The notes below the pieces were generated by a model. It had not been told where the DNA came from and searched no databases. It was given only the letters and a program-made list of their open reading frames with translations. DNA of 56,474 bases, filler included, from Diploschistes diacapsis (lineage: Eukaryota): NCBI GenBank assembly GCA_023645945.1. It is 6 parts of 6 records of this genome, joined end to end, with 100 filler letters (N's around TTAATTAATTAA, not from the genome) between each part and the next. Parts side by side here need not be neighbours in the genome. Positions count along the whole stretch, not along the records: positions 18,880 to 28,210 come from JALAIB010001056.1; 5 more parts are not named here. One strand, written 5' to 3'. Positions 2,055 through 47,156 of this stretch are shown here, in pieces. Numbering within the stretch: position 1 is the first letter of the stretch; every line of letters starts with the position of its first letter. Both the position numbers and the translations under genes were made by a program.

Positions 2055-3123
2055 CTAGTTCTTTTGTGAAGCGGGCCCTTCGGCCCAGGGCTTCATCTCC
2101 TTCGATTCGCCGTTCCACTTATAGACTTCTCCCCTACCGACGTTATATTGATAGTAGTTTTCGGTCCCGCCTCTGACCATAGCCCTCCGAAAGGTGATGT
2201 TGATACGCCCTTTATCTGCCTCACCTCGCTTCCTCTTCGGAATGCTATGGAGCCAATTTGCCTGCGTTTTGCCTCGCATGAGGATCATATCCCCACTAGC
2301 AAGGGGTAAGCTGAGTGGTTTACTGCCCTGGCTGGCGGCGCCGTCCGGTTCTGCTTCTCCGTGTTTGGGAATCACCGGTTTGTGCTTCATCAGAAAATCC
2401 CTCTTGGCACCCAAGGAGAAGGATGCTATGGCGGGATCGGGTCCAAGGAAACGCTCATCGTCGCTATGATAGGAGATACTATCCTCTCCGCTAGCGTAGT
2501 AGTTAACCAAACAAAAGTTATAGGTCGAGCCTGTAAAGACCTCTGTAAGCTGGCGTAGGTGATCTAAGCAAGCGGGAATGGGCCTCGGTTTGCAGGTCTT
2601 ATACCGATCGGTTGGTATAGACTTTTTCGTATTGCTGTCTATCAAGGCCCCTGCATCATCAAATCTAGAGCTCTCATCGACACCAAACACGGTAGTACTA
2701 CCCAATGTTAGGCTAGATCGGGCGAAGAGGCCTGTAAGGAGCATACAATCTAGGGGTGCTTATATCTTTCTCTAACGGACCACGTTTGATCTTGTACTTT
2801 ACCCGGTAGAAGAAAAGCTCCCGTCTTAGAAACTCAAACACGGTATTTTCTAGAGACCTGGGAATATACGGCTGGAAATACAATAGATCAAGATCTTGTT
2901 GGTCCTTGATCTCTCTACCGTCCGAGGCAGGGATTTGAGAAGACAAGGCATCTTGTATCTCTGAAGGGAAACCTGGGATCGGAAATGGATATGTAGGGTG
3001 CCGGGAAGAAGGCCCATTCACTACTGGCGCATGAGGTCCGGAGTCGAAGCTTGATTCTCCGATGCGTGCCTTCTTAGTTGTAGCAGGCTGGAAAAAAGTG
3101 TCCAGAGTTCGCTTGGGCGTCAT
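2055..3123 (-). CDS. AlkB-family 2OG-Fe(II) dioxygenase (ALKBH2/3-like DNA repair protein); exons 3123-2747 and 2697-2055
   Basis: Two ORFs joined by a 49-nt intron (GTATGC...CTAAC...TAG, 2746-2698), giving ...ISTPRF-TTVFGVD. Motifs: NFCLVNYY, SISYHSDDE (HxD), WLHSIPKR, RINITFR. Confidence 0.9.
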
Positions 3124-4430: not shown

Positions 4431-6647
4431 TTTGCGGCTTTCGGGGACTGGTGCTCAAGTGAAGCGACGTCAAGTCGATGCTGAGATGGGCCACAGGAGC
4501 TCAGAACGAACCTCAGACAAGAATCAAACCGCGGATGTCCTAGCACGTGACTAGGCTTAATAGAATCCGTATTCCAGCCACCAAGTTGGAAATGGCTGCC
4601 GTCTTAGGGACACCATATCATATCACGTATATCTAGTTCCCATAGTAATTTGAGCTCTAACGTGTTTCAACACACAACGGATCACCCCACAAAGCGGTTC
4701 ACAATCCCTGCACCTTCGTAAATGTATTTCTTAACATTTTCACCTTTCGTACAAATAATTTTATGTGTGGTTATGGGGCTCAAAAGCTCGCTTAAAACTA
4801 TCTAGCGCATCTACATTATAATGAGTAACTCGCTTTGTGGTGTAACCCGTTTTGTGGTGAAAGACGTTAAAGTGACATTCAGATTATGTAATACATTGAT
4901 GTCACATGATATGGAGCATATGTGGCGACAGCCCTATAGTATTTGTGTGGAGAAAAAACACCGTTCCAAAAGCACATATTCCTTCTCAGAGACTGACTGC
5001 TACAGAGAACTTGAGCCAACTTTCCTGGCCGCCGTTATAATTTATCCAACTACCAATGCTGCAGTACCCCCTTCTAAACACGGCTGCTTTTCATAGCTTT
5101 TAACTATGTTGGAATTACAGCCAATCCAAGAATTCAAATGGGTTCATGGTACCAGGAGAAAGTCCTGCAACAAGTACAACCACACTTGCAGCCTTCTGGG
5201 CCAGCCGTGTGGCCTTATGCCACGGTATAATATCAAAATTTGTATTGCGCTAGAAATACACGGTGAGTTTCCATTGCAGATGCTGAGACTGACTCCGGGT
5301 AGGGTTACATCGACCAAATGAGTCAAAACAACCATATTTCCACATTTAGCCTCTGCTCGCTTTGCATCTACCGGCCGCCCGAGTCTCTGGAAGGGCCGTT
5401 CCCCCTGTAGGGGTAAAGAGAAGTATAGAGATCCCATGTGAAGGAGACGGTGGGAGTGGCTTGAGCCATCCGTTCTCTGCAGCAGTTAGTTGCGTTTGCG
5501 CCATGCGTGATTGCGTTCCTGGTCGCTATCAGTTTAACCGTCCGCTTGGCTCTTCTGTACAGAGTCATTTAGCCATACGCTTCTGGTTTTTCTATTACTG
5601 GGCAACGGCCTCAAATATTCACAATTCACGGTGGACAATACCACCACCACATGCACTGTGGTGTATGTGGTTTAGACTTTATTCCAACACCCGACACTAC
5701 CCACATTGCGACTTGCGATGGTACATTGGAGATACACCAAAGTTGGCAGAATCTCCGTTCAGGGCTAGTACAAAATTCAATCAATAACAGTATTTGCTTG
5801 GCCTCTGCCATTCTCGACCGACCTCCACGAGCAAGCGTAAGTTTCTTTCCTCCTGCTTATGTCTTATACAAATTTGTCTGCTGTCGAGTCGTCTCTTTCA
5901 AGCAGTGCTGAGAATAGACTTGACCGTTTGCGTGGTCAGTATCTAATTTGCTCGCTGAACCGCAAGCTAGAACAACATTGGGCGTGCTTTTGATTGCGCA
6001 CCCTGGCAACTCTCTTAGGGTTGGGCGGATTTTCTTGTCGTATGACTTGCAGCACAAGCGTATCGCTACGTGCATTCCTAGAGACCGTGTCTCGTCTATG
6101 TTTTCATAATTGTCCTTGAAACGTCTGCTACTTCGCGATGTGTATTTTCCAGTTATAGAAATGCCGCCATGTCACGTTGCAGCTCCCTGGTCTCTTTAGT
6201 CTTGTTTCTAAACCCGTTCACTTGACATTTGTTTCTGCACTTTACTGCTTATGCGTCTAATTTCGATTACGGAGTCTTCAACCAGGCTTTCTGATCAACA
6301 CAATCGTTCTACCATCCGCTCACGGCGATCCGTTTGAGGGTTCCATAGCTTGCTGGCAAAGTAGGCCAGGTTTCACACCACGTTGAGACCATAGATCCAC
6401 AGTGGCCACGACTGCCTGAGGTCGATCACTGCCTCAAGGTGAGGTTGTATGCTCACACTCACCACTAAGGTTGCAGGTCTTGGTACCAGCTAGCCCTGTC
6501 GCCATCTTCAGCTTTTCCTTCAATCCTCGCCTGATATGTTATCGTATAAAGGGAGGTTGGAGCCCTTGCTCGTATGCATGCACCGTACTAAGAGTCTTGG
6601 AATCCTGTCCACTTCGAGCTGCTAGTGCCTTTGCTGTCGCATTCATA

Positions 6648-7701
6648 ATGACTCGCTTCTCTATAGCATCTCTTGTCTTACTCGCCCTACAAGGAGCTGC
6701 ATTTCCTTTGTCCAGGCGATCAATTGCTGGCCCAGTCATCACCATCAATTTCCCCGATCCCTCATTCATCGAAGTCGATGGCTCGTACTACGCTTTCGGA
6801 ACGGACAATGGCGCCTTGATCCCCTTCGCCACGTCGCCAGATTTCAACGCCTGGACCGTGCAGTCCGGCTCCGCTCTGACCAGCGCCGGCTCGTGGAGCA
6901 ACGGCGCCAACGTATGGGCCCCTGATGTCGTGCAAATCGTAAGCCTCCTTCCTCCCTCCCTATGCCGATATACTAAGCTTTTCACCCTAGGGCAGCACCT
7001 TTGTGATGTACTATACCGCCCAGCTCTCCGATGGATCCACCAACTGCATCGGCGTTGCCACGGCCTCCGCCCCAGCGGGCCCCTACACTCCACAAAACAG
7101 CGCCCCTGTCGCCTGCCCCTCCTCCCAGGGCGGCGCCATCGACCCGAACGGCTTCCAAGACTCGGACGGCACAAACTACCTGCTCTACAAGGTTGACGGC
7201 AACTCCATCGGCCACGGCGGCAACTGCAACAACGGCGTCGCCCCCATCGTGCCGACGCCCATCATGCTGCAGCGCATGAGCGCCGACGGCACCGCGACCG
7301 ACGGCAGCGCGCCCGTGCAGATCCTCGACCGCGACGACGCCGACGGTCCGCTCGTCGAGGCGCCCAGCCTCGTCCGCGTGCAGGATCCGTCCTCGGCGGG
7401 GGGGTGGCTGTACATCCTGTTCTTCTCCAGCAACTGCTACTCCGGCAGCCAGTACGACACTAGCTACGCCGTCTCGACCAACGGCGTCGCGGGGCCCTAC
7501 ACGAAGGCGCAGGCGCCCGTCGGCCCGCTCCTGAAGACGGGCTCGCCGTACGGCCAGCTCTACTCACCCGGCGGGCTGAGCATCGCGTCCACGGGCACGC
7601 AGGTCGTTTTCCACGCGGACGAGGGGACGACAGCGGATACGAGGCAGATGTACACCGGGAACATCAACGTCGATGTCGCCGGGCGCAGCGTTTCGATTTG
7701 A
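6648..7701 (+). CDS. Secreted glycoside hydrolase family 43 (arabinanase/arabinofuranosidase-like); exons 6648-6938 and 6991-7701
   Basis: Signal peptide MTRFSIASLVLLALQGAA. GH43 motifs NFPDPS, VWAPDV, GAIDP, LVEAP, SPGG. A 52-nt intron GTAAGC...CTAAG...TAG (6939-6990) restores the frame. Confidence 0.9.
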
Positions 7702-9340: not shown

Positions 9341-9440
9341 NNNNNNNNNNNNNNNNNNNNNNNNNNNNNNNNNNNNNNNNNNNNTTAATTAATTAANNNN
9401 NNNNNNNNNNNNNNNNNNNNNNNNNNNNNNNNNNNNNNNN
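9341..9440. other. Artificial contig spacer
   Basis: N44-TTAATTAATTAA-N44 (stop codons in all six frames). Confidence 0.98.
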
Positions 9441-9901
9441 GTCGTTAATCGTGCCAGCTCTAGGCCGCATTAAACTAATAATTAAAAATATAATATATTA
9501 TGCTTCCTATTAGTAAACACACGTAGTTCATTTCGTTCCATTGGGCCAGACTGGTGCAAACTTGAAGAGCTCAGGCATACCCGCAGCCCACACACGCACC
9601 GTGTGGATGAAAGGCGGGTTTTGGCGCGCCTACCTCATCACCACCCAATTCCCTGAATGGTTCTTGCTTTCTGTAGCTGCCACTATTATTGCGCCGTTAC
9701 CAGCGCATCTGTCCCCTGATCGTTCTTCATTTCCCTTCCTTTTGCTTGTATTATCCCCCTCCCTTGTTTGCTCTTGCAGGCTCCAGCTTTGCATTGCTCT
9801 CTAGCATTTCCACCCATCTGTTGGGCTTACGGAGTCATACCTACCGTTATTGTCACTGCTATAGAAATCTTTAATTTCTAATCAATCTGGACTCAGCTAA
9901 G

Positions 9902-12900
9902 ATGGAAGAACCCATTGATTCCGATGTCCCCGTGGAGGAAGAAATACTCACTACAGCTGCTGAGGCCTCGAGGTCCAAGACAACTTCGACATCGCCCAAA
10001 AAAAACGCAGTTCCTCTAAAACGTCCCGTTACTGTTACCACAGCCAAGAGGCCGGGTGGCCCAGCATCAGCGGCAACTTCGAAGTCCACAACTACAACAG
10101 GCCGAAGCGTTGCTTTAGGCAGTACCTTAAGCAAGCCACCCACCCGTCCGCCACCTTCTTCGGCTGTACGGCGTTCGATAGTCCCCGCGAGCTCTGCAAC
10201 ACCGTCTCATCGCTCACGTTCTTCCATAGGCTCCATAGAAGGGGAAAAGAAGGGATCTGGAAGTCCCAATGCTGAAGCAAAGAGATCCATGGTGTCGGGG
10301 ATAGCGAAGCGGGCTTCGCTTACACCCTCCGCCGCCTCGAAAATGTCGGAGAACAGGCCGCCTACATCAGCTGCGGCTCGCCGAATACCCGGCAGCACAT
10401 CGTCAATTGGCGAGAAAAACATAGCTATGAGCTCTAAGGACGAAAGCAAGCCACTTTCAGACAGTCTAAGGAGCTCTATGACGGCCATCAACACCTCTCG
10501 CACTGTTCGGTCTTCAACTTTGACGAAAGGGTCCTCGAGCGGCTTAGCAGAAGGCAAGAAGAGGTTGAGCACAATACCAGCATCGCCCGCTACACAAGTA
10601 CCTCTGTCTCCCACAAAGCAAGAACGACCTGCTCTAGGAGCGCGTAAGTCTACCATGTCGGCCATGACGGAGCAGCGGCTAAGAGAATTTGAGCTTGTTC
10701 AAAATATGCTCAAGGTTGCAATGGCTCAAGACGCGGCCGATGACGAAGTAAAAGAGGAGTACACAAAACAGATGGATAAGAACCTTGCCACACTCAAAAA
10801 GGAACTGCAGGATGCCAGGCGAGCTGAAGGCCAGAAGCCAACTGAGCCCCTAGTCCCAGAAACAAAGCCAGGGGAGAGCGATGCAAGCACGTCGAATACC
10901 TTAGAGACGGAGTTACGGTCCAGTAAAGCAAGAGTGGCAGCCCTTGAAGCGGAACTGGCAGATGCCAAGCAAATCATGGACAAATTTAGCGCTCAGACCG
11001 AGGAAGCGTTGAAGGCCATTGATGCTTCCAAAGAAGACATGCAGCACGATTACGACCAGAAAATAAATGAACTCACTGCTTCCCATGCTGCCGACCTTGC
11101 AAGGGTTAGAACAGAACAGAAAGTTCGAGATAAACAAAATTCTCAGCAAAACGAGAAGGAAGCCAAAGGTGTTGCAGATGCTAAGAAGAGCCTCATACGT
11201 GATCATGCCACTGAGCTTGACAAACTTAAAGCCCAGCACGCTGGCGAGCTGGAGCAACTCCGTATAGAAATTGCCGAGAAAGACAGAGTACATAAGCAGC
11301 AAGCCGAGCAGGCAATAAAGGATGTTGATTTTGCGAGGGCCTCTGCCCGTCAACAGGGTTCTGACGAGGTGGCACGCCTTTTGGAGGAACAGAAGGAGAA
11401 GCACGGTCGGGAACTAAATGCGTTGCAAGCAAAATCCGAGGAAAATCAGAAGCAAGGGCTGGATGCTTCCTCGAAGGTTTCGGAATTAACTTCTCAATTG
11501 ACTGATTTAAGAACCCAACTTGCAAATGCGGAACAAGCTTCCGCAGATGACGTGAAAGCTTGCAAGGCCCAATTTGAGAAGGAAATCAACGCAAAGGATG
11601 AGCAAATTGTATCATCTACAGCCGAGCTCGCTGCTGTACGCAAGGAGTTGGCCGTGCTCAAGGAGTCTCATTCACGGGAACTCGATGAAGTCCAGGCGAG
11701 CTCTACGGAACGCATCAGGAGTGCTCAAGCAGATCACGAAGCTTCAAGACAAAGGCTTGTTGAGTTGGAAACGGGTATTAGCGCAACTTCCGCAGAGCAT
11801 GAGGAATTGTTTAGAAAAAAGGATGCAGAAATCCAGGACCATGTGCAAAAGGTGCAAGAGCTTGAGGCTTCGGCAACTGTGCTCAACCAGCAGCACAAGC
11901 AAATTTTGCATGCAAAAGACGCCGAAAAAGCCTCTGCGTTACAGCGTATCCAGCAACTGGAGGCTGACGCAAGCTTCAGCACATTCCAACACGCCGAAGC
12001 ACTTGCGGTGAAGGAGTCTGAGATTGAAGCCTCTGTGCAGAAGGTCAAAGAGCTGGAAAAATCTGCAAGCTCCTCTGCCGCTCAACAGGCCGAAGTAATG
12101 GCAGCAAAAGAAGCCGAAACCCAGGCCTTTGTGCAACGGATCCAGCAGCTGGAAGCTGATGCAAGCTTCAGTAACGTTCAACAAGCCGAAGCAATTGCAA
12201 TTAAAGAAGCTGAGCTTGAGGCCTCCGTGCAAAGAGTCAAGGAGCTTGAGCAGTCTTCGGAAACAGTAACTGCTCAGCAAGAAAGGGCTCAATCAGAGAA
12301 AATGGCCGAGCTTGAGTCCCTCCAGCAAAAGTTCCACGATCTCGAAGCTGTTAGCAAATCAGACTCTGCCCAACGCGGTGAACTCATTTCTCAGATTAAT
12401 GAGTTGAAATCAAAGATCCAAGAACTTTCAGATGCGAAGCAGGAACAAGCTACGAAGATGCTCGAAGAGAATCAGGCCCTGAGACAGGAGCGAGACCAAG
12501 CACTTGGCGCTTTACAGCAGAATGAATCTTTGCATGAAGAGGTTGAGGTGTACAAAAGACGTGCGGCAGAATGGGAAGCTACTGCTGAAGACCGGTTGAC
12601 AGAATATCAATCGACAATCTCAACGAAGAATGCAGAAGTACAGAAGCTCGAGGCGGCCATCCAGAAACTGCAAGAGCAAATTGAGAACCTTCACCAAGGG
12701 AAGCGAGACGAATTGGACGAAATGAAAGCTGCAATGCAACAAGCTCATGATGCTTTGATTGAACAACTCAACAGTCAGCATCACGTTGACCTGGAGACTG
12801 CCCTAGCGAACATCAAAGAGGAGTACAGCGACGCACAAGCCAAGCTTTCGGCTGAACTTGAGAAGACGAGAGAGGCTTATGCTATTTCTATGAAGCACAG

Positions 12901-14802
12901 TAATGACCTGTCTATTGAAGTGCAAGACACTAGATCCACGCTTCAAAAGACTATTGATGATTTCACTGCAGAAAAGACGTCTCTAGATCAGGTTCGAGAT
13001 GGCCTCAGCGAGGAACTTCAAAATGCCACCGCTAAAGCTTCCGAGCTGCAAGAAATCCTTGACACTTGTAATCAAGACAGTCAAGATAAGGAAAGGCAGC
13101 ATGCGGCCAGTTTTCAGAGAGTCAAAGATGAGCTCAAGAAGGCTACGGAAGAGTTGCAAGAAAAGACAGAAGAAGGCATGTCTCTGCTCAGCAATCACGA
13201 CATTCAGTTAGAATCTCTAAGGAAGGAGCACGCTGAAAAGATTGACCAGCTTGCATCCGATGCCAAGGCACATTCTACTCAGCTAGACTCCTTGAAGGCT
13301 AAGCAAGAAGCTCGTGTGCAAGAAATGCAGGAGCACCATTCGCGCGAACTGAACGATGCCAAGCAAGCGTACGAAAAAGCTGCAGCAGCTTCTCAGAAGG
13401 AAGTTCAAGAACTGCGGCAAAGTCTAGCCAATATGGAAAGTGAACTTCGTATAAGTAATGACAAGAGCGCAGCAGCAACAGCAGCAGAAGATTCACGCGA
13501 TAAGCACGAGGCTGAACTAGAGGAACTTCGTGTGCAGCTTGCCAAGGCCAACTCTGATTATGCCACTGCGCGCAAGGACCTTGAGTCTGCAGGGATAGAG
13601 CAAGGTCAAATAGAATCTCTGAAAGAGCAGCACGCCGCGCAACTTGAAGAGCATGAAAAGTCTTACCAAGAAGCCAAAGTCACTGTGGCCGAGTTCCGTG
13701 CAAAACTGGCGAGTGCAGAGCAAGCACTCGAAGACACGTCACAGCTTGACGCGCTCAAGCAGGAGAACACGAGACTCATTGAAACGTATGAGGCTAAACT
13801 CTCTGAGCTACAGCGAGAAATGGCAGCCGAAGCCGAAAAGCATGAAAAGCAAAGACAAACCGGCGCAGATGTCCGGGACAAGCTAGTGTCGCAACTAGAA
13901 GAGCTTGAACGTTTTCGTAGAGACTACCCTGCTGCTAAAGAAGAAGCGGAGAAGCATCAAGCAGATGTCCACGCTCTTCGAGGAGAGCTCCAAGAGAGCC
14001 AGGCGGAACTAGAAAAAGCGTTATCCGCTCATCGGGAAGAGCGAGCACAAACCGCAGCTGACCTCGAGGAAGTAAAGAATGAGCTTGAAAAGACCAGAAA
14101 GTCATGGAACCGACGTTCGAGGAGTAACTCGGGGCTCCGGGGGGACCTTGAAAAATGGCAACTTGCAACCGAGAACGCACGCAAAGGGAACGCTCAATTG
14201 AAACAGCAGCTAGAAGAGGCCACTGCAAGTATCGAGCGCCATGCATCCCGGATCCGAGAAGTCGAAGCAGCTCTGAAAGCAACCGAGGCAGAAATTGTGG
14301 AGCTCAAAACCAACGCGGCAAAATCAAAAGAGTCGCCTCTGGCAGCAGGACTTGAAGGCAGCCAAGGGGCATCCGAGGGTACGGATAATGTTGCTGGCAG
14401 TGATGACTCGGTCGCGGACCCGGAAGATACGGAGAGAGGTTCTCAAATCGCGGGAGCCGTAGGTATCTCTCGTTCTTTCACTCCTTAACCGTGGTCTGTC
14501 GGACATCAATATTTCTTTATTTAACCGTACCTTTCGGACCATGGGCTAATTCCCGCTATAGATGGCCGGACTTCAGGCCCAGCTCAGAGCTCTCGAGAGC
14601 ATTAACGAGGACATGATAGGCGACCATCAGAGGTGAAGGAATATGGATTGTCCCATTATTTGGCCAAGGTTAACAAATCAGCAGGATGGTTAACATACTC
14701 ACTCGTCCGCTCAGCTCCCACTCAAGCAAGAATCTGACCCCACGCTCGTCGAAGTCCAACCTTTCACCTTTTGCGGCCGCGTTCAAGCCTGCAGCTACTT
14801 GA
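9902..14802 (+). CDS. Large coiled-coil protein with basic Ser/Thr/Pro-rich N-terminus (about 1580 aa); exons 9902-14458, 14562-14632, about 14685-14802
   Basis: 1528-codon ORF, E/K/Q/A-rich and heptad-like. Introns GTAGGT...CTAAT...TAG (14459-14561) and GTGAAG...TTAAC...CAG (14633-14684) extend it with MAGLQAQLRALESINEDMIGDHQR...AAT*. Confidence 0.8.
11795..12370 (+). repeat. Six tandem 32-aa (96-bp) degenerate repeats inside the coiled-coil protein
   Basis: Units begin EHEEL / QHKQI / QHAEA / QQAEV / QQAEA / QQERA. QRIQQLEADASFS recurs 64 aa apart, as does EASVQ(K/R)VKELE. Confidence 0.8.
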
Positions 14803-18779: not shown

Positions 18780-18879
18780 NNNNNNNNNNNNNNNNNNNNN
18801 NNNNNNNNNNNNNNNNNNNNNNNTTAATTAATTAANNNNNNNNNNNNNNNNNNNNNNNNNNNNNNNNNNNNNNNNNNNN
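18780..18879. other. Artificial contig spacer
   Basis: N44-TTAATTAATTAA-N44. Confidence 0.98.
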
Positions 18880-19992
18880 TGCCACGCCAACCCCCTTTCC
18901 TCCTCCCCACCTCGGGACCTGACAATCCTCATCTCCACCAAATCCGGCACCGGCCAATCCCCTTCCTTCTTCATCTCCATCCTCCAACCCCTCCTCTCCC
19001 TCCTCGGTCTGGCCCCAGAATCCTACACGCTCCACTCCACATCATCGGAGCGCTGGATCTCCGACTTCGCCGTCTCCACCCTCTGCGCCCGTGCAAACGC
19101 TGGGATCCCACAGACCATCATCCTCCTGTCCGGCGACGGCGGCGTCAGCGACATCGTCAACGGCCTCTTCAGCCAGCCCCAGAGCGAGCGCTACGTGAAG
19201 CCCACCATGGCGCTGCTGGTCCTGGGCACGGGCAACGCGCTCGCCAACTCCTCGGGCCTGAACCGGGGCGCTGCGAAGGGCTTGCCGGCCCTGCTGCGGG
19301 GCAGAGCGAGGAGGGTGCCGACGTTCGTGTGCAGGTGCGCGCCGGGCAGCGTGCTGCTCGTGGACGAGGGCCGGGGCACGGAGGAGTTGACGGTCGACGA
19401 CTCGGGGCGCGGGATCGTGCATGGCGCTGTGGTGGCGAGCTGGTGTCTTCACGCGAGCCTGGTGGCCGACTCGGATACGGCCGCGTATCGGAAGCACGGG
19501 GCTGCGAGGTTCAGCATGGCGGCGAACGAGCTGTTGGCTCCGGCGGATGGGAGCGCCTCGCACGTTTATAGGGGGAGGATCACGACGTGGCAGAGGGATG
19601 GAAAGGGGGAGGTGGCGAGGAAGGTGTGGGAGCGGGAGGGGCATATGTATGTGTTGGCTACGCTGGTGTCGAATCTGGAGGCTGCGATGAAGGTTTCGCC
19701 GGAGTCGAGGCCGCTGGATGGACAGCTGAGGTTGGTGGGGTTCGAGGCGCTGCCGAGCGAGAAGGTGAAGGAGATCTTTGGTATGGCGTTCGATGGGGGA
19801 AGGCATGTGGAGCACCCGGAGGTGGACTACGAGCAGATCAAGGGTCTGAGGATTGACTTTTTAGAGAGTGATCCGAGGTGGCGGAGGGTTTGTGTTGATG
19901 GGAAGATTGTGAGGGTGCCGGAGAATGGATGGGTGGAGATCTGGAGGGAGCAGAAGGATGTTGTTGATCTCGTTGTTGATCATCAGATATAG
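18880..19992 (+). CDS. Diacylglycerol/sphingosine kinase-like catalytic domain protein, 5'-truncated
   Basis: Open frame from the contig edge with ILISTKSGTG, ILLSGDGGVSDIVNG, LGTGNALANS, WCLHASLVADSD, RRVCVDG. Confidence 0.85.
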   Translation, partial: CHANPLSSSPPRDLTILISTKSGTGQSPSFFISILQPLLSLLGLAPESYTLHSTSSERWISDFAVSTLCARANAGIPQTIILLSGDGGVSDIVNGLFSQPQSERYVKPTMALLVLGTGNALANSSGLNRGAAKGLPALLRGRARRVPTFVCRCAPGSVLLVDEGRGTEELTVDDSGRGIVHGAVVASWCLHASLVADSDTAAYRKHGAARFSMAANELLAPADGSASHVYRGRITTWQRDGKGEVARKVWEREGHMYVLATLVSNLEAAMKVSPESRPLDGQLRLVGFEALPSEKVKEIFGMAFDGGRHVEHPEVDYEQIKGLRIDFLESDPRWRRVCVDGKIVRVPENGWVEIWREQKDVVDLVVDHQI

Positions 19993-21400
19993 CTGATGAA
20001 TGGTTCATAACGCAAGTTGTTAACGGTTCAGATACAGCGCTCGTTCAGTCGTGACGGATATCGTATGTTGCAATCTTGACAGGTTGACTGCCAGTCCCAG
20101 TTCACTCACGCCCAGTTCAAGCACATTCCTATCAGCATCTATGCGAAATGCTGCCTTCACGCTGCCATGCCAGTTTGCGAAGGAACTAATATGTCAGCAT
20201 ACACGATAACATGTTCACCAGCGATATATGCTCCTGGTCAACATTGTAGTCTTTGTAATGGCAAATCGGCGTGCAGCACCAGCTTAGTAGAACCAGCCAC
20301 AGGCAGTCATCTCGAAGGCTTGAAACTACCGGTAGCCAGGGTGTTTATCAATTCCCAGCACAAGAACCAGGTGGTAAGGGCATAGCCATGTTATGGTCCA
20401 TCAACTGAGCCAAAATAACATCCACTGTTAATATCAGACAACAAAGGCAACGCGTTGAGAGCTCCTTAGACCCTCCCCATTACGGGTGTTTCATGTAGAT
20501 TTTGTATCTGGGAGGTTTGTCCTCGAAATAAGTGGTCGCCATCAGTACAGCTACCTATCCCCATGCCTAGCGCTTAATCCCATTCCCACTTTTTGTGAGC
20601 ATTACGAACTGTTACCGGCGCCGCTGATTCCTTAGCAACCAGGTGATATTAAGAATAACTTGCATACTAGACACCTTGTTCCACCGCTCTATCCCATACC
20701 AGAGCTTCGGGGGATGCTTCAGATCAATCAAGGACAGAATAGGTCTGAGTGCATCTCCCGCGCTCTCTCTTGTGGGCCCAAAAGGGCCGGAAACAAACGC
20801 TCAGAAGGAGCGGAACAACCATAACCGCTGCAGGAATGCTTATAATGCCTGAGTATCATTTTAGGTAGGGTTTGCTTTGGTAATCCTCATATCCAAGGGA
20901 GAAGTGTTTGCAAAGCAATGAATAATTCGGTGAGACAAATAAGCAAGATTATTCTTCATGGTCTCTTCAATCAGCAAAGAAGAGAGCCTGATCAACTGTC
21001 AAGATATTATTGGATAATTCGCTTAGCTAGGATCTCTGCTTATAAAGGGCCTCGCTTTCTATTTACGGTTTGGACTCTTCCGCATCAAAGGCTTTCGCGA
21101 CAATATGATATTCTTGAATAAGATAGGCTATTGCATCCGACGAGGATTTCGTCTATTGCAGCACATGCGCCCACAACATCATCCAAGTTGCGTCTTCGGC
21201 CCAAGGAACGAGAGGCAGCTCTAAAATCGAATCTCTCGCGAACACGACATTGAGAACGAAGCAGTAGAAATCGCTATGGCGTTGCTATTGCTTGGACGAG
21301 CACCTTCTGAGGGGAACCTCACCGCTCTATAGTCATCTGCGTCGAATGGATCAACTGTATCCTCCTGGACAGTAAGAGCTGGAATGCCTCCCCAAGACCG

Positions 21401-21831
21401 TTAAGCGATAGTCTGAGCCTCGTCTCGGGAGGCTATGGGCTCGCTACCCTTTCCATCACCTTGGACTTCAATATCTGCCTCCGCCGACCAGATGGAAGGT
21501 GTATCCTTGCCGCGGGAGGCCAGGGGATTAGTGCCTACTGTATCTGTTTTGGCTGAAGCACCTGGCCACCACATGAGAGGTGTATCCTCGCCGCGGGAGG
21601 CCAGGGGATTAGTGCCTACTGTATCTGTTTTGGCTGAAGTACCTGGCCACCACATGAAAGGTGTATCCTCGCCGCGGGAGGCCAGTGGAGAGCTTTGTGG
21701 GCCATCCGGTTCTAGAACAACGGTCAGAACGATATCAAGAATGAGAAGCAGTCGTGCCTACTATTGGATAGAGGAAGACTTTGGGCCAAGGCGCACAAAG
21801 TGCTCCCGAGAAGCATCAAGGACAACTTCAT
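21401..21831 (-). CDS. Putative RiPP (dikaritin-type) precursor peptide, 126 aa, signal peptide plus repeated cores; exons 21831-21762 and 21711-21401
   Basis: Spliced translation (50-nt intron GTAGGC...CTGAC...TAG, 21761-21712): MKLSLMLLGSTLCALAQSLPLSNKPDGPQSSPLASRGEDTPFMWWPGTSAKTDTVGTNPLASRGEDTPLMWWPGASAKTDTVGTNPLASRGKDTPSIWSAEADIEVQGDGKGSEPIASRDEAQTIA*. Lies about 1.5 kb from a DUF3328 gene. Confidence 0.8.
21498..21685. repeat. 81-bp tandem repeat (about 2.3 copies) encoding the 27-aa precursor unit
   Basis: GGTGTATCC recurs at 21498, 21579 and 21660; the units are nearly identical. Confidence 0.95.
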
Positions 21832-22470
21832 CTTTGCGGAAGAGGGCTTGAGAGATTTTTGAAGTCGTTCAATCAGGATGTTTTGAATGGTTTTAAAGAT
21901 CCAAACACGAGATGAAAGAGTTATTGAGTGTTTAAATAACCGTAGACCAGTCTCATTGCCCCTCCCAAGTTGTGTGGAGTTGTCTCAGGCCTCGATCCAG
22001 TGCATGAGGTGCACACTTAATCGTCCAAGAAATAGGGGAATGTCCTTTGATACACCGCTCACGACGACTATTGATGCGAGTAAAAGCTTTAATGCAGCTC
22101 AAGAGAGGTCGATTCTTCTTTCTGATGTTCATGATGCAGAAGAGGGTGCACTGTGAGCGGATATGTTTGCCTACAACACCTGTACGTACAACTCGACATG
22201 CATCTCTATGGGTAAGGCACCAATATACTAATAAAGTTTAGCTCAATGGTGAGCATCACCTGCGTGTTCAACGAACAGGAACAGTTTTACGAGAGTGGTA
22301 GGTCGGAATGATACGAATGTTGCACTGCATCAAGTCGACATGCACAGCCTCAAATCCAGGCTTTCCGTGGGTAACCTGCAATACATGTAGCATTGAGATT
22401 GTCCACATCTGTTATCATCGGCGTAATTCGTTAACCATCGTGCTCAACCTCTGGGGACTCTTGTGCAGTC

Positions 22471-23269
22471 ATGTCCGCCACAATCAACATCGTCCCAGCT
22501 ATGGAGGCCGATTTACCCTTGATAGCCAAACTCGCCGTCACGTCCATGTCTGTCCATCTTCTCTTCCGAATCATTTACCCCAGTAATAACCCGCTCGACA
22601 CCACCAAGGCAGAGCACGATGTCCTCAAGGATCTTCAACATCAGGCCAAAAATCCAGCCGCCCGCATTTTCAAGGCTTGTTCCACAGAGAACGGGGCGGA
22701 TATCGTCGGTTATATGATGTTTCGATTCGCGGATGGCCCAATCGATGACGTCATCGCACCTGCATCAGACAAGATAGTCAGCTCAGCGGCCGCTGAAGCC
22801 ACTACGAAGCTTGGTAACGATGGGGGAACGACCAATGTCGCGTTCCTGTCCAAGGTGAGCAGCCTGCTGAAGCCGGCCTACGCAAGGCACATGGGCGGGA
22901 AAGCCCACATCTGTAAGTCCTTCCCAACCCACCTTCTTGAATGGGCCATGTCGAACGAGATCAGCGCTGATGCACCGGCTTGGGACAGACTGGCACCACC
23001 TGTCGGTGTGGCCGCACTGGCAGAGAAAGGGGGTGGGGACTGCGATGATGCGCTGGGCGTTCAATGAGTTCGATCTCGACCACTTGCCCATCTATCTAGC
23101 AACCCAGACTCTCGGAGAGGCAATGTACAAGACTTTGGGGTTTCAAGTTGCCGAAATTTTCGACGTCGATCTTAGGGATTATGCGCCAGGGTATTTGGAG
23201 GGCTACGGACTGCACCGCATCGTTTGCATGCTACGACCCCCTGTCGCCCAATCTGTTATTGAGAACTGA
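22471..23269 (+). CDS. GNAT-family N-acetyltransferase (240 aa); exons 22471-22912 and 22989-23269
   Basis: Intron GTAAGT...GCTGAT...CAG (22913-22988) joins HMGGKAHI-YWHHLSVWPHWQRKGVGTAMM (acetyl-CoA motif A, QxxGxG). Also IYLATQ and MYKTLGF. Confidence 0.88.
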
Positions 23270-23364
23270 ACACCCTTTTTAGATCTTGCACCTATGGTGG
23301 GACTCATATTTGCTTGAAGAGTATACTGAAACATTCATGAGATGTTTAAGAAATAAATTGAATT

Positions 23365-24192
23365 TTAAAGATAAAGCGCCTTGCTTTCGGCCCATCTGAT
23401 GAGACTCTCGTAATCTTGACATTGGTGGTCTATTCCGATACCCGAGATGATTCGCGTTCCTGGGATATTCGGTTCAAGCGTGGCATCTGCAGCACACATT
23501 AACGCCTGCCGCAGGTAATCAACGCAGTGTATTATATGGTAATTAAACTCGTCAATCTTGGCCCTAGCGACCTCGGGATGAAGGGTCAGATCGTAATAGA
23601 TGCGACGAATGGAATTCTGGGCTGGTGAGTTAAACGACCACATTAAAGAGGCTTCCTCTGTCCATCAGGACTTACAAGGCAATGCATTTGATGGAACACC
23701 GCAACTCCCGCAATCTCCGGCTGGTCACTGGTATCGCCTTTAAGTGGAATGAGGCCTACAGCCTCGGACTTGCCGTTGATCTGATGCGAGGTGTGGCCCC
23801 CTTTGAAGACGAACTGCATTAGCTTCCTGCCTGAGAAAAGCCTATCGAGCTGACCCACCGGGGAAAAGCTCCTTCCAAGCGTTGTCTGTCTCGAATGATG
23901 GTGCTTGCCCGAAAGTCTCATTTCTCGTGAAGTTCTTCCTCAGACTTTCCCGCAGGAATGGAGCAGGAAACCCTCCTGCTGGGTTGCCAGTGGCCGTGGA
24001 AGAGTCGGTCTTCCTTACCGCCGCGATTGCAAAGAGTATCGAGACAGTCAGAAGAACTAAAGTCCATACTGTTCGTAAAACATCGCCTAACCGTAGTTTC
24101 GAGGAAGGAATCTTGATCTCTTCAAGTAGGGATTCGTCGGATCCTTTCGATGCGGCGAGAAATGGCTCAGAGTCAAGTGAGTTGCGGGCCAT
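23365..24192 (-). CDS. UstYa-like / DUF3328 oxidase (236 aa); exons 24192-23859, 23800-23676, 23616-23365
   Basis: N-terminal TM helix (VWTLVLLTVSILFAIAAV), PSFETDNAWKEL, and two HxxHC motifs: VFHQMHCL and HIIHCVDYLRQALMCAADATLE; C-terminal HQCQDY. Introns 23858-23801 and 23675-23617 are canonical and restore the frame. Confidence 0.93.
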
Positions 24193-24479
24193 TGGCGAGT
24201 GTTGAGGTAACAATTGAAGAGTTGAGTACGATCCATTACGGAGAGGGCGTTTAAGTAAGACCGTAGACTTTTCGATTTGTGCGGAATGAGTCCGAATGAT
24301 GCTTCTGTTCCGGTGTCCATAAAGCCATCATCCACTCGTTACGAGATCAATTACCCACTGTGGTCCGCTGATCGGTAAAATGATAAGCAAATAGGCGACC
24401 ATGGTGAAAATAGGTAACAACGGTTATTACCAGTGATTTGCTAGCTCAACCAGGCATTTTCGTACTTATCCTTACCTCA

Positions 24480-25550
24480 GTAGATACCTCAGACTATATC
24501 CTAACGCGCTAGTTGCGCGCCGGCCGGTTTGTCTCGAAAACACTACCTGCTCTCCGCTCACTCTCCACATATAATATGCCTACCAAGTAATTTAGCTCAT
24601 ATCTAGCTCCCATAATAATTTGTATATATTACATATACGAGCCATATTACGCCATAAGCGTACCCATTTCCGACGCATTTACATAGATCATCCAAAATTA
24701 ATTTTATAATAAATACTGTCAGAATACTAACCTAAATAGGGTAGTCAGATTGCTTACTAAGCTTCTAGCATGTTTAAATATTCTAGAAGGTTCTAGAATA
24801 TTCTAAAACATAATAGAATATTATCGAAGATAATCGAATATTATCGAATATCATCGAATATTCTAGAATATTCTAAAATATTCGGCTTATTAATGCATGG
24901 AATAATTTAAAAGGGTAAAGAACATTCTAGAATAATGATTACTAATTACACTAGCGTGAAATGTGCCTATAAAAGGCCTCTCACCCTCCATTGTTCCTAG
25001 TTATAACCTTCAACCTCTTCAATATCTTCACTGTATAATAGTCAGCTACCAGGCTAGGCAGGCTAGGATTATTCCCTAGTTAGGACTAGCTGCAGAATAC
25101 ACTCTTAGTCATCAGTTATCTATTAGGACTTCCACCACTTTCAACACAACCCTTATTTATTTATTTGATTTTTAAAGCGTGAAGTATGAAATGAATTTTT
25201 AGGGATATAATGCTTACAATTTAAAAAAGGTGAAGTGTAAGGATGTAATTTTTAATAATTATTTAGTTTTTAAGCTTTAATTACGTACCAGGAGTTTGGG
25301 GACGCAATCCCCGAAAAAAAAGCATGGTTTAAAGGTGCAACCCCTCATGACTTACCTAGTTTTTTAAGCCTAGATTTTTTATTTAGTACATACTGCTTCG
25401 CTTAGGAACTGCGAGGCTGTTTACCGACACTTGATATTTCTGTTTTATAGTTTATATATAAATAAGGACCGCGGTTGCATTATTGCTTTTAGATCATCTC
25501 TTATCTTTTTAAGCTAGCATTCTACTTCCTTAAGTGTGAATCACCGTCCA
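24480..25550. mobile_element. AT-rich RIP-like relic containing a possible solo-LTR-like segment (about 24717-25146)
   Basis: TG...CA-bounded segment with internal (A)ATATTCTAGA/ATATTATCGA short repeats and a TATAAAAGG box at about 24968. No clear target-site duplication. Confidence 0.4.
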
Positions 25551-25821
25551 GAAACACAATGCACGATCTACGATTTACAAGTATGTCTGCACGATGGCAT
25601 CGGTGTGCAACGTGAAACTGTTAGGAAAGGCTGTACCTTGAAACTATTTTCAACTACCTGGTGCCACAGAACTGTGTAGCCTGCAGAATCCTTACTACGT
25701 CAAGAACGCTAGTAATAACCATACTCTACCTCCGTAACCACTATATCCCAATGCCACGGAGGCCGAAAGCAGCGTTCCATGCCATCAAGCCACAACAACT
25801 AAGAAGTGCGTGTGCATAGCG

Positions 25822-27208
25822 TTAAAACTGGATAAAATCTTCTTGCCTTGACAAAGCCTGGTCTTCTAGCCCACCGGCTTCGAGTATGATGGCATCGCCT
25901 AGAGTCTCGGTGCCTGTACTGTCAGTAATACTAGGATTGCTTGCTTTTCCCTTGGCATAAACCTGTATTGCTTGGACAGCATGTTGTCTAAGCTGGCCGG
26001 CCCTATCCACATGTCGGAGACGACACTGAGCATTTAAACATTTACCTTCCTCAAAATAACCTGGACACTCGAACCTGTGCTGTGCAGGACAGGACGTTCC
26101 CCTGCTACAAAAACCAAAGCAAGAAAATGCCCAACATATCTCTGCAGCTGGTTTCACACGAACGTGTGGATAGCGGCAAGCTGACTTGAAACATGTACCT
26201 CGAATGAAGTGCACGCAAGCTGGAACACGTTCGTACGTGAGTTCATGGGATAAGTCGCAGTTCTGGTCTTGCTGGCACTCGCCATGTTTGAGGAAGTCAC
26301 GACATACGGCAACTTTTGCTGGATCATGACCGAAAGGACAACGAGAACCGAGGGGACATCTTCCTATCACACAAGTTAGTCTTGGTCATCCGCTAGTGAA
26401 GCCCCATCATAATTCTACTTGATGCAGGACAGAGGGGGAAGAGAAACGGTACCAGTCTTAGTAAACCTTTTGCACTGTTGCGTTTTGATTGTAGCGGTCG
26501 GTGTGCTCCTAAGCCGTTCATGTTTAGCTGAAGTATATATCCGGAAAATTGCCTGGCCTTGCTGATTGGGCTTACCCGTGGCTGTTTGACTGCAAATCAA
26601 AATGGCCAGCTCCTATGGAATGAGAGAGCCAGAGCTGTCGAGAATTACCAGGTCCTCCTTTACAATATCTTGTTAGATGCACAGACGAGTCAGTATGGAG
26701 ATACGGGTCAGAGCCCCAAGTTACATCTTCATACCTGATTTTGCCAGTCAAGATATTCTGCTTGTGTACTGAAGGGCTGATTAGCTGCAAATGCCGATCG
26801 TGTTTGGACACCCATCCCTCTATTGGCATATAGCTATCACAAGAAGGCTCTGTCGACACTGGGGATCGTGTCTGGTCTAGGATCTCCAAGGCGGAGCCGT
26901 GGACGTTATGAGATAATGCTCTCGGGGTCTGCTGGATGACTATTGATCGATGGTGGTGACCAGGCATGCGAGTAGATACTTTTGTGATTCTACCTGTTCG
27001 AGGATGGACATGCCCACATACAGTGGACTTAGTGCTTAGGGTTTGGGGACGTGGTATATTAGCAGTGGGTGGCTGCTGAAGTGATTCTTGTTGATCTCTA
27101 TGAAGATTGATCCGACCTTATAATTGTTATCGCTGTTAATTGGCATTGATTGGTGAGCTTACCTGCAAGCTGTGAGATGCGAGACAGTATATCTTCGTCT
27201 TCGCCCAT
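25822..27208 (-). CDS. CCCH zinc-finger protein (ZC3H3/Red5-like), 4 exons
   Basis: Start MGEDEDILSRISQLAG-RINLH; WVSKHDRHLQLIS; tandem C-x8-C-x5-C-x3-H-type fingers (CKRFTKTG-RCPLGSRCPFGH, CRDFLKHGECQQDQNCDLSH, CVHFIRGTCFKSACRYPH...). Introns at about 27162-27117, 26575-26509 and 26452-26364 restore the frame. Confidence 0.75.
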
Positions 27209-27299
27209 TTTTGATCATGAGATCACTGTAGCTGGCAAGACCAGACACATCTGTTTAATACTGTTGTGGAATTGGTGCGCAGGTCCCTAGCGATAATAA

Positions 27300-28210
27300 C
27301 AAAGTGGCTAAGATTTCTTAACTAGGAAGTTATTCTTAGCCTACCGAACCTACTTAAATTCACAAAGGGTTTACGTTGCAAAGTTAATAAAATTGGCATG
27401 ATGACTTGGGTACTTTTTCGAAAATAATAACTAGTTTTCCTATAATATGTTGGACGGGGCTTCCGGCCACCTTTAGATTCCGGCCGCTTTAAACCTTCAT
27501 CGCTAATATTCTACGGATCATTTATTTGTCATAATTAAAATTTAATCCATGCGAGTAATTTTTTTAACTTGTTTAACGGTCTATCCGGTTACTTCCCCTT
27601 CTGGCCATTTTAAATCATTATTATCATTCTATTTTCAATCTTTCTCAACAATAGCAGTCTCGCTTCGAAATAAATCGTTATTAATAGAATTGTGAGATAA
27701 GATATGCAGTAGGGTGAAACGCCAGTGCAGGAAAGGATGCTACTCTACCGGGGGCTGGGCCTGATCCGGAAGGATTAGGTGTAGCTTAGACATCTGCAGG
27801 TAAAAGGTTTCGATTCGAAAAGCTGAAGAAGAAACTATCTAAATGGGAAGAAGGTACCGTTAATTAGTGTAAATGCTAGACTTACCGGGATTCAGAGATT
27901 ACCCGTTTATACAACCATTTGCTAATCTTGTCGTGTTTTAACAAGCATTTGGGTATTGATTTTGCCGTGGCTTAGCAAATATTTAGGTATTAATCCTATC
28001 GTGGCTTGGTAAGTACCTGAGTACTAATCCTACCGTGGCTTAGCAGGCCCAGCTTAGCAGGCCTTTGGGTTAAACTATTTCATTATTTCTTTTTTTAGAT
28101 GTTTATATTTCTTATAAACGCGATATTCTTTTTTAATTAATTTTTATCTCGATTTTTATTTCTTTTTTAATTTGTTTAAAAGGATATTTATTATTTTTTT
28201 ATAATAAATG
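27300..28210. mobile_element. AT-rich RIP-like relic with degenerate ~33-bp repeats (CGTGGCTT core, about 27930-28050)
   Basis: No ORFs, high AT/TpA content, three CGTGGCTT(A/G)G units; runs into the gap. Confidence 0.4.
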
Positions 28211-28310
28211 NNNNNNNNNNNNNNNNNNNNNNNNNNNNNNNNNNNNNNNNNNNNTTAATTAATTAANNNNNNNNNNNNNNNNNNNNNNNNNNNNNNNNNN
28301 NNNNNNNNNN
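28211..28310. other. Artificial contig spacer
   Basis: N44-TTAATTAATTAA-N44. Confidence 0.98.
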
Positions 28311-37637: not shown

Positions 37638-37737
37638 NNNNNNNNNNNNNNNNNNNNNNNNNNNNNNNNNNNNNNNNNNNNTTAATTAATTAANNNNNNN
37701 NNNNNNNNNNNNNNNNNNNNNNNNNNNNNNNNNNNNN
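37638..37737. other. Artificial contig spacer
   Basis: N44-TTAATTAATTAA-N44. Confidence 0.98.
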
Positions 37738-47056: not shown

Positions 47057-47156
47057 NNNNNNNNNNNNNNNNNNNNNNNNNNNNNNNNNNNNNNNNNNNN
47101 TTAATTAATTAANNNNNNNNNNNNNNNNNNNNNNNNNNNNNNNNNNNNNNNNNNNN
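47057..47156. other. Artificial contig spacer
   Basis: N44-TTAATTAATTAA-N44. Confidence 0.98.

Follow-up and report, generated by a model that had tools for sequence, protein, structure and literature searches.

The DNA analysed here is a stretch of 56,474 bases from the lichen-associated fungus Diploschistes diacapsis (hereafter, the window), in which six contigs, each about 9.3 kb long, are linked through N44-TTAATTAATTAA-N44 spacers. The third contig (positions 18880-28210) carries three genes inside 2.8 kb: a small gene for a candidate secreted repeat precursor, a gene for a GNAT acetyltransferase and a gene for a UstYa/DUF3328 oxidase. These genes make up a candidate cluster for a peptide made on the ribosome and modified after translation (RiPP).

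The UstYa gene lies on the minus strand and encodes 236 aa in three exons, whose spliced coding sequence is in frame and contains no internal stop. Exon 1 (24192-23859) covers the N-terminal tail and the membrane anchor. Exon 2 (23800-23676) ends in the first HxxHC motif, HQMHC, and exon 3 (23616-23365, stop included) contains the second, HIIHC. These motifs stand at residues 148 and 180, respectively, and the protein has two Cys besides those of the motifs, both in exon 3. The exons are separated by introns of 58 nt (23858-23801) and 59 nt (23675-23617, GTAAGT...TTAAC...CAG). The Pfam profile PF11807 (length 220) matches all three exons collinearly, at profile positions 14-90 in exon 1 (14.1 bits), 120-137 in exon 2 (16.6 bits) and 143-219 in exon 3 (57.9 bits, E 1.7e-15), exon 3 alone being above the 25-bit cut-off. 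The hydropathy peak of 2.39 at residues 41-59 suggests a single N-terminal membrane helix. Based on the profile matches and on both putative copper-binding motifs, we assign the predicted protein to the UstYa/DUF3328 family. The original prediction, made from the sequence, had described a DUF3328 protein with a membrane anchor and both HxxHC motifs, and the PF11807 matches, the two motifs and the helix bear this out. The second acceptor that it implied was shifted by 5 nt, to CCCAG, to hold the frame.

A biochemically characterised protein for comparison is CctR, described in 2025 as a dimer that is linked by disulfide and anchored in the membrane and whose HxxHC(x)nHxxHC motif contains a binuclear copper site (PMC12435403). 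According to the same source, CctR requires O2 and electrons, AprY and ApnU are reported to be similar, and AprY activity depends on copper and O2 (PMC12435403). The layout of CctR, with a helix at residues 38-59 and inter-monomer Cys (PMC12435403), is the same as that of the protein encoded here, which has its helix at 41-59 and two extra Cys predicted to be luminal. Searches for relatives gave little. A PDB search with the UstYa exon found no structure-solved relative. The word-index protein search with exon 3 gave, among longer proteins, 15 candidates, none of which was scored, and no full-length relative; among proteins of similar length, the single match was the window's own open reading frame (ORF). 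In the JGI metagenome scan with the same exon, none of the 439 pattern matches was confirmed.

The GNAT gene is located on the plus strand and encodes 240 aa in two exons, again with a spliced coding sequence in frame and free of internal stops. Exon 1 (22471-22912) has a codon log-odds of +36.7 bits, as calculated with a model for which 14 ORFs of the window with Pfam support served as the training set. It is followed by an intron of 76 nt (22913-22988, GTAAGT...CTGAT...CAG) and by exon 2 (22989-23269, stop included), which contains the acetyl-CoA motif QRKGVG and matches Acetyltransf_7 at 29.0 bits (cut-off 27). Both the Pfam domain and the Q/R-x-x-G-x-G/A motif place the predicted protein among the GNAT acetyltransferases, in agreement with its earlier assignment. 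Exon 1 alone had no Pfam and no PDB match; exon 2 gave only weak generic GNAT matches in PDB, NCBIfam yielded nothing of use, and the subfamily cannot be assigned. The protein has no signal peptide.

The candidate precursor gene is on the minus strand and encodes 126 aa in two exons (spliced coding sequence 381 nt, no internal stop). Exon 1 (21831-21762, 70 nt) starts from an ATG at 21831, with A at -3, and encodes a predicted signal peptide, MKLSLMLLGSTLCALA, after which the protein continues with QS. This peptide is composed of MK, a 13-residue hydrophobic core and a putative cleavage site between A-L-A and Q. The intron (21761-21712, 50 nt) has the donor GTAGGC, the acceptor TAG and, 11 nt before the latter, a branch-site-like CTGAC, and its removal joins both exons exactly in frame. 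Exon 2 (21711-21401, stop included) contains the repeat units and the C-terminal DEAQTIA; no Pfam family reaches its cut-off in this exon. Over the two strands of the window taken together (112,068 nt), six ATG starts, 21831 among them, passed a simple signal-peptide filter; this count is indicative only, since the filter was devised after the sequence had been seen. One of these six starts precedes a secreted-type GH43 ORF, and 21831 itself is correctly oriented, with the repeat exon 120 nt downstream of it. The two-exon precursor with a signal peptide proposed earlier is thus upheld by the in-frame 50-nt intron and by the filter-passing start at 21831.

Is this a gene at all? A young 81-nt duplication could keep the frames of both strands open, the upstream ATG and the hydrophobic stretch being coincidental. 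Indeed, the repeat is open on both strands (minus strand, 118 aa; plus strand, 144 aa), and for this reason the openness of the ORF alone is no proof of a gene. The codon log-odds of the exon 2 frame is only +6.9 bits over 102 codons, no homologue of the precursor turned up in the searches, and the donor sequence, GTAGGC, departs from the form most frequent in fungi (consensus GTRNGT). Nevertheless, the proposed frame scores highest among the six, the next one scoring -14.5 bits (a margin of at least 21 bits); the 50-nt intron with its CTGAC branch site restores the frame exactly; the signal-like start, one of only six in 112 kb, has the correct place and orientation; and the ORF stops soon after the repeats. 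Based on this balance, we consider it improbable that the reading frame is an accident of the duplication, and likely that the small gene is a real gene for a secreted protein. The 144-aa antisense ORF (21417-21851, plus strand) spans the tandem repeat, has a codon log-odds of -18.1 bits and is probably a by-product of the repeat.

The tandem repeat (21487-21689; period 81, 2.5 copies, 94% matches, score 364) is translated in frame into two 27-aa units, PLASRGEDTP(F/L)MWWPG(T/A)SAKTDTVGTN. Units 1 and 2 differ by 3 nt, comprising one synonymous change and the F/L and T/A replacements. The third unit, PLASRGKDTPSIWSAE..., retains PLASRG-K-DTP-x-I-W before it diverges. In all, there are four regularly spaced copies of the motif P-[LI]-A-S-R, the fourth being P-I-A-S-R before DEAQTIA. 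The precursor contains five Trp, has Phe or Leu at the variable position of the core and lacks a Cys pair. A signal peptide and repeated units containing Trp and Pro-Gly would also suit an alpha-factor-type mating-pheromone precursor that merely happens to lie near UstYa, and dikaritin and pheromone precursors are described as generally alike (PMC9233826). The small gene has, in turn, no KR sites, no Cys pair and no match to the Pfam family MF_alpha, and the pheromone explanation is a very improbable one.

The number of repeats deserves caution. Short-read contigs of two independent runs stop inside the repeat, at 21538/21610 in run X1 and at 21525/21634 in run X2, and because of these breaks the copy number of 2.5 is insecure. 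The true number may be above 2.5. The summed depth in the repeat bin was 116.7 against about 83 in the flanks in X1, and 119.6 against about 62 in X2.

Relatives of the precursor were sought in several collections. The HMMER scan of 1.84 billion representatives gave a single match, P0001 (E 2.7e-5), with four 26-aa repeats that share PL-x-SRG...P..W with the precursor. We rejected P0001 as a homologous precursor: the peptide is a reading of a bacterial dispersed palindromic intergenic DNA repeat, and its score is inflated because a repeat was aligned to a repeat. A relative of P0001 is located on a contig of a Chloroflexaceae metagenome-assembled genome with a GC content of about 0.6; its neighbours there are genes for an ABC transporter, an asparagine synthase and an epimerase. 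Over 6.5 kb, the repeat of this genome includes a 54-nt element in six direct copies, a 199-nt element in four copies and six inverted pairs. On the Chloroflexaceae contig L001 (7076-8271, 10219-10511 and 11291-11792), the GC-rich palindromic repeat lies between cell-envelope genes and was called as a "protein". The 5.8-billion word index gave seven candidates for precursor exon 2, none of them scored, and the JGI metagenome scan with the precursor/P0001 alignment gave 191 pattern matches, none of them confirmed. In the literature searched, the core motif MWWPG occurred in no paper. The earlier remark that the core matches no recognised dikaritin agrees with both the protein and the literature searches. 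By these searches the predicted precursor is an orphan, without evidence of a conserved family.

The precursor and GNAT genes are divergent, with 639 bp (21832-22470) between their ATGs at 21831 and 22471; the ORFs in this interval have no Pfam match, and the interval may hold a promoter shared by both genes. The GNAT and UstYa genes are convergent, with 95 bp between their stops (23269 and 23365). The rebuilt gene models, with distances of 639 and 95 bp, accord with the arrangement first reported, namely three genes in 2.8 kb with about 640 bp between the divergent and 95 bp between the convergent pair.

Other copies of the locus were looked for in sequencing runs; five runs were listed, three of which held part of the stretch, and no RNA runs were among them. 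The share of sampled words found was 0.99 in the lichen metagenome run, from which the stretch probably derives, 0.37 in X2 and 0.14 in the rock metagenome X3. A 2952-nt contig of X2 covers 21634-24571, from the second repeat unit through GNAT and past the UstYa start, and, compared with the window, shows 75 substitutions along with 66 gap letters; in this run, the precursor's 3′ end is on a separate contig. Pieces of GNAT and UstYa were found in X3, with no cover in bins 22000-22311 and 24184-24495. With an identity of about 96-97%, the X2 and X3 copies are too close to the window to tell whether the order of the genes is under selection.

No tyrosinase, methyltransferase, peptidase, transporter, non-ribosomal peptide synthetase (NRPS) or polyketide synthase (PKS) domains were found on contig 18880-28210, which is short, with 2.5 kb and 4 kb of sequence beyond the cluster on its two sides. 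Besides the cluster, the only recognisable domains on it are those of a DAGK_cat kinase and a CCCH zinc-finger protein, and the minimal gene content noted previously is supported by Pfam. A similar architecture has been described in lichens. In a survey of 111 genomes of lichen fungi, Pasinato and Singh (2025) reported RiPP-like clusters that were mostly singletons, with many UstY homologues (PMC12048977). One group, Clan R2, conserved across Parmeliaceae, is presented there as a single UstY homologue flanked by GNATs, without the usual dikaritin accessory genes, and the survey stressed that the precursor could not be found (PMC12048977). The present locus resembles Clan R2 in its lichen-associated host, in the single UstY with two HxxHC motifs beside a GNAT, and in the lack of tyrosinase, methyltransferase, reductase and transporter genes, as far as Clan R2 is described in the survey. 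It differs in that GNATs stand on both sides of UstY in Clan R2 and one GNAT, on the 3′ side, is found here; the likeness described is one of architecture. A further difference is that a candidate repeat precursor is present here and none was reported in the account of Clan R2. In our literature search, this survey alone connected fungal DUF3328 with both a precursor peptide and an acetyltransferase.

The locus can be interpreted in two main ways. On the one hand, UstYa and GNAT may form a two-enzyme module acting on another substrate (a precursor encoded elsewhere, a non-ribosomal peptide or a small molecule), and the small secreted protein may be unrelated, for example, cell-wall or effector-like. 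DUF3328 proteins take part in the NRPS pathways to cyclochlorotine and astins and in the polyketide pathway to atpenin (PMC12048977, PMC12435403), and Clan R2 is reported to retain UstY and GNAT without a recognisable repeat precursor (PMC12048977). The absence of Kex2 sites, Tyr and relatives in the precursor points in the same direction. On the other hand, no NRPS, PKS or other core enzyme is encoded on the 9.3-kb contig, short as it is, and the precursors of Clan R2 may have been missed. The survey searched annotated genes by means of SignalP, Kex2 dibasic sites and a repeat finder (PMC12048977), and the gene described here would escape such filters because it has two exons, no KR and 2.5 repeats. 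In addition, published statistics make a chance encounter of this kind look rare. Among 1461 fungal genomes (Umemura), 22% of the secreted Kex2-type repeat proteins had a DUF3328 gene at most 15 genes away, and 31.8% of all DUF3328 genes lay within 15 genes of a repeat precursor, with a peak at the adjacent position (PMC7329392). By this enrichment, a signal-peptide repeat gene should seldom fall within two genes of UstYa by accident (PMC7329392). The same work describes one DUF3328-associated precursor type with "W accompanied by P" cores and not Tyr (PMC7329392), and victorin is cyclised through Phe, so that Tyr is not obligatory (PMC9233826). The pairing of the precursor with UstYa is plausible on the grounds of anatomy, neighbourhood and these statistics. 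We therefore lean, with slightly more than even confidence, towards reading the locus as a minimal UstYa-dependent fungal RiPP cluster, and leave to the module acting on another substrate a minor, though substantial, share of the probability.

A number of points weigh against a RiPP cluster. None of the dibasic (Kex2) sites and none of the Tyr residues typical of characterised dikaritin precursors are present in the 126 aa of the candidate. There are only two full units, which are nearly identical, and the term "multi-core" rests on a recent duplication. Per codon, the coding support for the precursor is low (0.067 bits, against 0.18-0.25 for the GNAT exons), and the signal-peptide filter was a post hoc one. 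The HMMER scan of 1.84 billion representatives gave no genuine relative of the precursor, P0001 being spurious; the co-occurrence test found only the nearly identical DNA (about 96-97%) of X2 and X3, and the wider relative searches were blank or spurious. DUF3328 enzymes also serve NRPS and polyketide pathways (PMC12048977), and a secreted repeat precursor next to such an enzyme was overstated in the original prediction as the "defining architecture" of dikaritins. Finally, a GNAT without a signal peptide would be in a different compartment from the secreted peptide. Several tailoring enzymes of ustiloxin likewise have no signal peptide. In favour of the RiPP cluster are the enrichment of secreted repeat precursors near DUF3328 genes and the gene model described above.

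The genes, their families, motifs and spacing are observed; how the three genes would act together, where the precursor would be cut, which reactions would occur and what GNAT would do are proposed as follows. The 126-aa pre-pro-peptide would enter the endoplasmic reticulum via its signal peptide. In the lumen of the Golgi or endosomes, the membrane-anchored UstYa would oxidise TP(F/L)MWWPG in each unit, acting as an enzyme of the CctR, AprY and ApnU type, i.e., a disulfide-linked dimer with binuclear copper held by the two HxxHC motifs. The likeliest modification would be a side-chain cross-link or a C-H hydroxylation at Trp or Phe. At the level of literature listings, a search for Trp macrocyclization of the UstYa type turned up no fungal Trp cross-link. 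The units may then be released by monobasic cleavage after the Arg of the four P-[LI]-A-S-R motifs and not at the usual KR of Kex2. Kexins require Arg at P1, and an aliphatic P4 can offset a poor P2, which would fit L/I-A-S-R. Once the peptide is released, GNAT may acetylate one of its free amines, at a Lys or at the Gly that has become N-terminal, or it may instead serve the self-protection of the producer. To our knowledge, N-acetylation of RiPPs has so far been reported only in bacteria. Bacterial examples of RiPPs acetylated N-terminally by GNATs are goadsporin, albusnodin and microviridins (cited in PMC12048977).

Among the characterised systems, the cluster of asperipin-2a (AprA precursor, AprY cyclase) is likewise described as having a single DUF3328 gene and a secreted repeat precursor, and no tyrosinase (PMC12048977). 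The cores of asperipin-2a are, however, cross-linked through Tyr and flanked by Kex2 sites, whereas the precursor studied here has neither Tyr nor dibasic sites; moreover, the asperipin-2a cluster includes a reductase and a transporter and no GNAT. The epichloecyclin gig cluster (gigA, gigB encoding DUF3328, gigC encoding a methyltransferase, and kexB) is similarly compact and combines a repeat precursor with one DUF3328 cyclase and one transferase capping an amine with a small group (PMC10540207). It is distinguished by the nature of the transferase, a SET-domain Lys N-methyltransferase and not a GNAT, by the dedicated kexin in the cluster, and by cyclisation via a conserved Tyr (PMC10540207). 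Victorin is an example of UstYa-type cyclisation without Tyr (PMC9233826). It differs in that its cluster is large and contains several copies of UstYa, its multi-core precursor is of the Kex2 type, and chlorination takes place. The plant BURP-domain cyclases (burpitides) are functional analogues only. They perform O2-dependent side-chain cross-linking of repeat cores with binuclear copper, and their planar four-His site resembles the DUF3328 model (PMC12435403), in spite of an unrelated fold and kingdom; they are often fused to their own cores. The residues that BURP-domain cyclases cross-link include Trp.

The locus fits the definition of dikaritins only in part: a signal peptide is predicted, and Kex2 sites and the core Tyr are lacking; this Tyr forms the ether cross-link in the published accounts of ustiloxin, phomopsin and asperipin. 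Of the genes in the five-gene definition that the lichen survey quotes from Ding et al. (PMC12048977), the tyrosinase, methyltransferase, peptidase and transporter are all absent on the contig. The term Kex2-processed repeat protein (KEP; Umemura 2020) refers to repeats separated by KR, RR or KK, and there are no dibasic sites here.

The remainder of the third contig contains the DAGK_cat kinase gene at its left end (18880-19992) and the CCCH zinc-finger gene in its right part (25822-26385), both based on Pfam. Rfam families were not found on this contig. Between UstYa and the zinc-finger gene there is 1.6 kb of repeat DNA, and 24193-25820, beyond the UstYa start, has no GNAT or other domain. 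Two AT-rich stretches, 24496-25431 and 27616-27927, had, in each of the three runs, a depth tens to hundreds of times that of their flanks, and the run contigs show numerous joints and loose ends there; these stretches resemble dispersed repeats or what is left of transposons. At 24777-24883 there is a tandem array with a 10-nt unit. The spacers between the six contigs occupy 9341-9440, 18780-18879, 28211-28310, 37638-37737 and 47057-47156, and inference across these joints is impossible. Among ORFs of at least 130 aa, the other five contigs encode proteasome, ribosomal L27A, ferric reductase, MFS, GH43 and TFIIS/SPOC/PHD protein domains; because these domains are eukaryotic or fungal, the DNA is regarded as fungal. 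The first contig contains a 2OG-Fe(II) oxygenase ORF (2058-2759, minus strand) and a GH43 glycosidase over two frames (6420-7698, plus strand; an intron or a frameshift), for which there is a signal-like start at 6648. The second contig contains an unbroken ORF of 1537 aa (9875-14485, plus strand) without a Pfam family at E <= 1e-5.

The architecture of UstY with GNAT was already published in 2025, and the novelty of the present locus is the candidate precursor, which is Kex2-free, Tyr-free, Trp-rich and encoded by two exons. Such a gene would be missed by pipelines because its signal peptide is on a separate 70-nt exon, it has no KR and its repeats are few. It is possible, although we regard it as rather doubtful, that the small gene represents the first "missing" precursor of the lichen UstY and GNAT clusters and, with it, a new RiPP subclass with monobasic release at P-[LI]-A-S-R, cross-linking or oxidation of Trp or Phe in place of Tyr by the DUF3328 enzyme, and an N-acetylated product. 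We know of no RiPP characterised from a lichen-forming fungus. The precursor gap of Clan R2 bears on the RiPP nature of those clusters, and the locus described here provides a concrete candidate to fill it. If this proposal were refuted, a role of the UstY and GNAT pair as a module for non-ribosomal substrates would become the likelier one. If it were confirmed, the substrates of the DUF3328 copper enzymes would come to include cores that lack Tyr and are rich in Trp, and the tailoring reactions of fungal RiPPs would gain N-acetylation.

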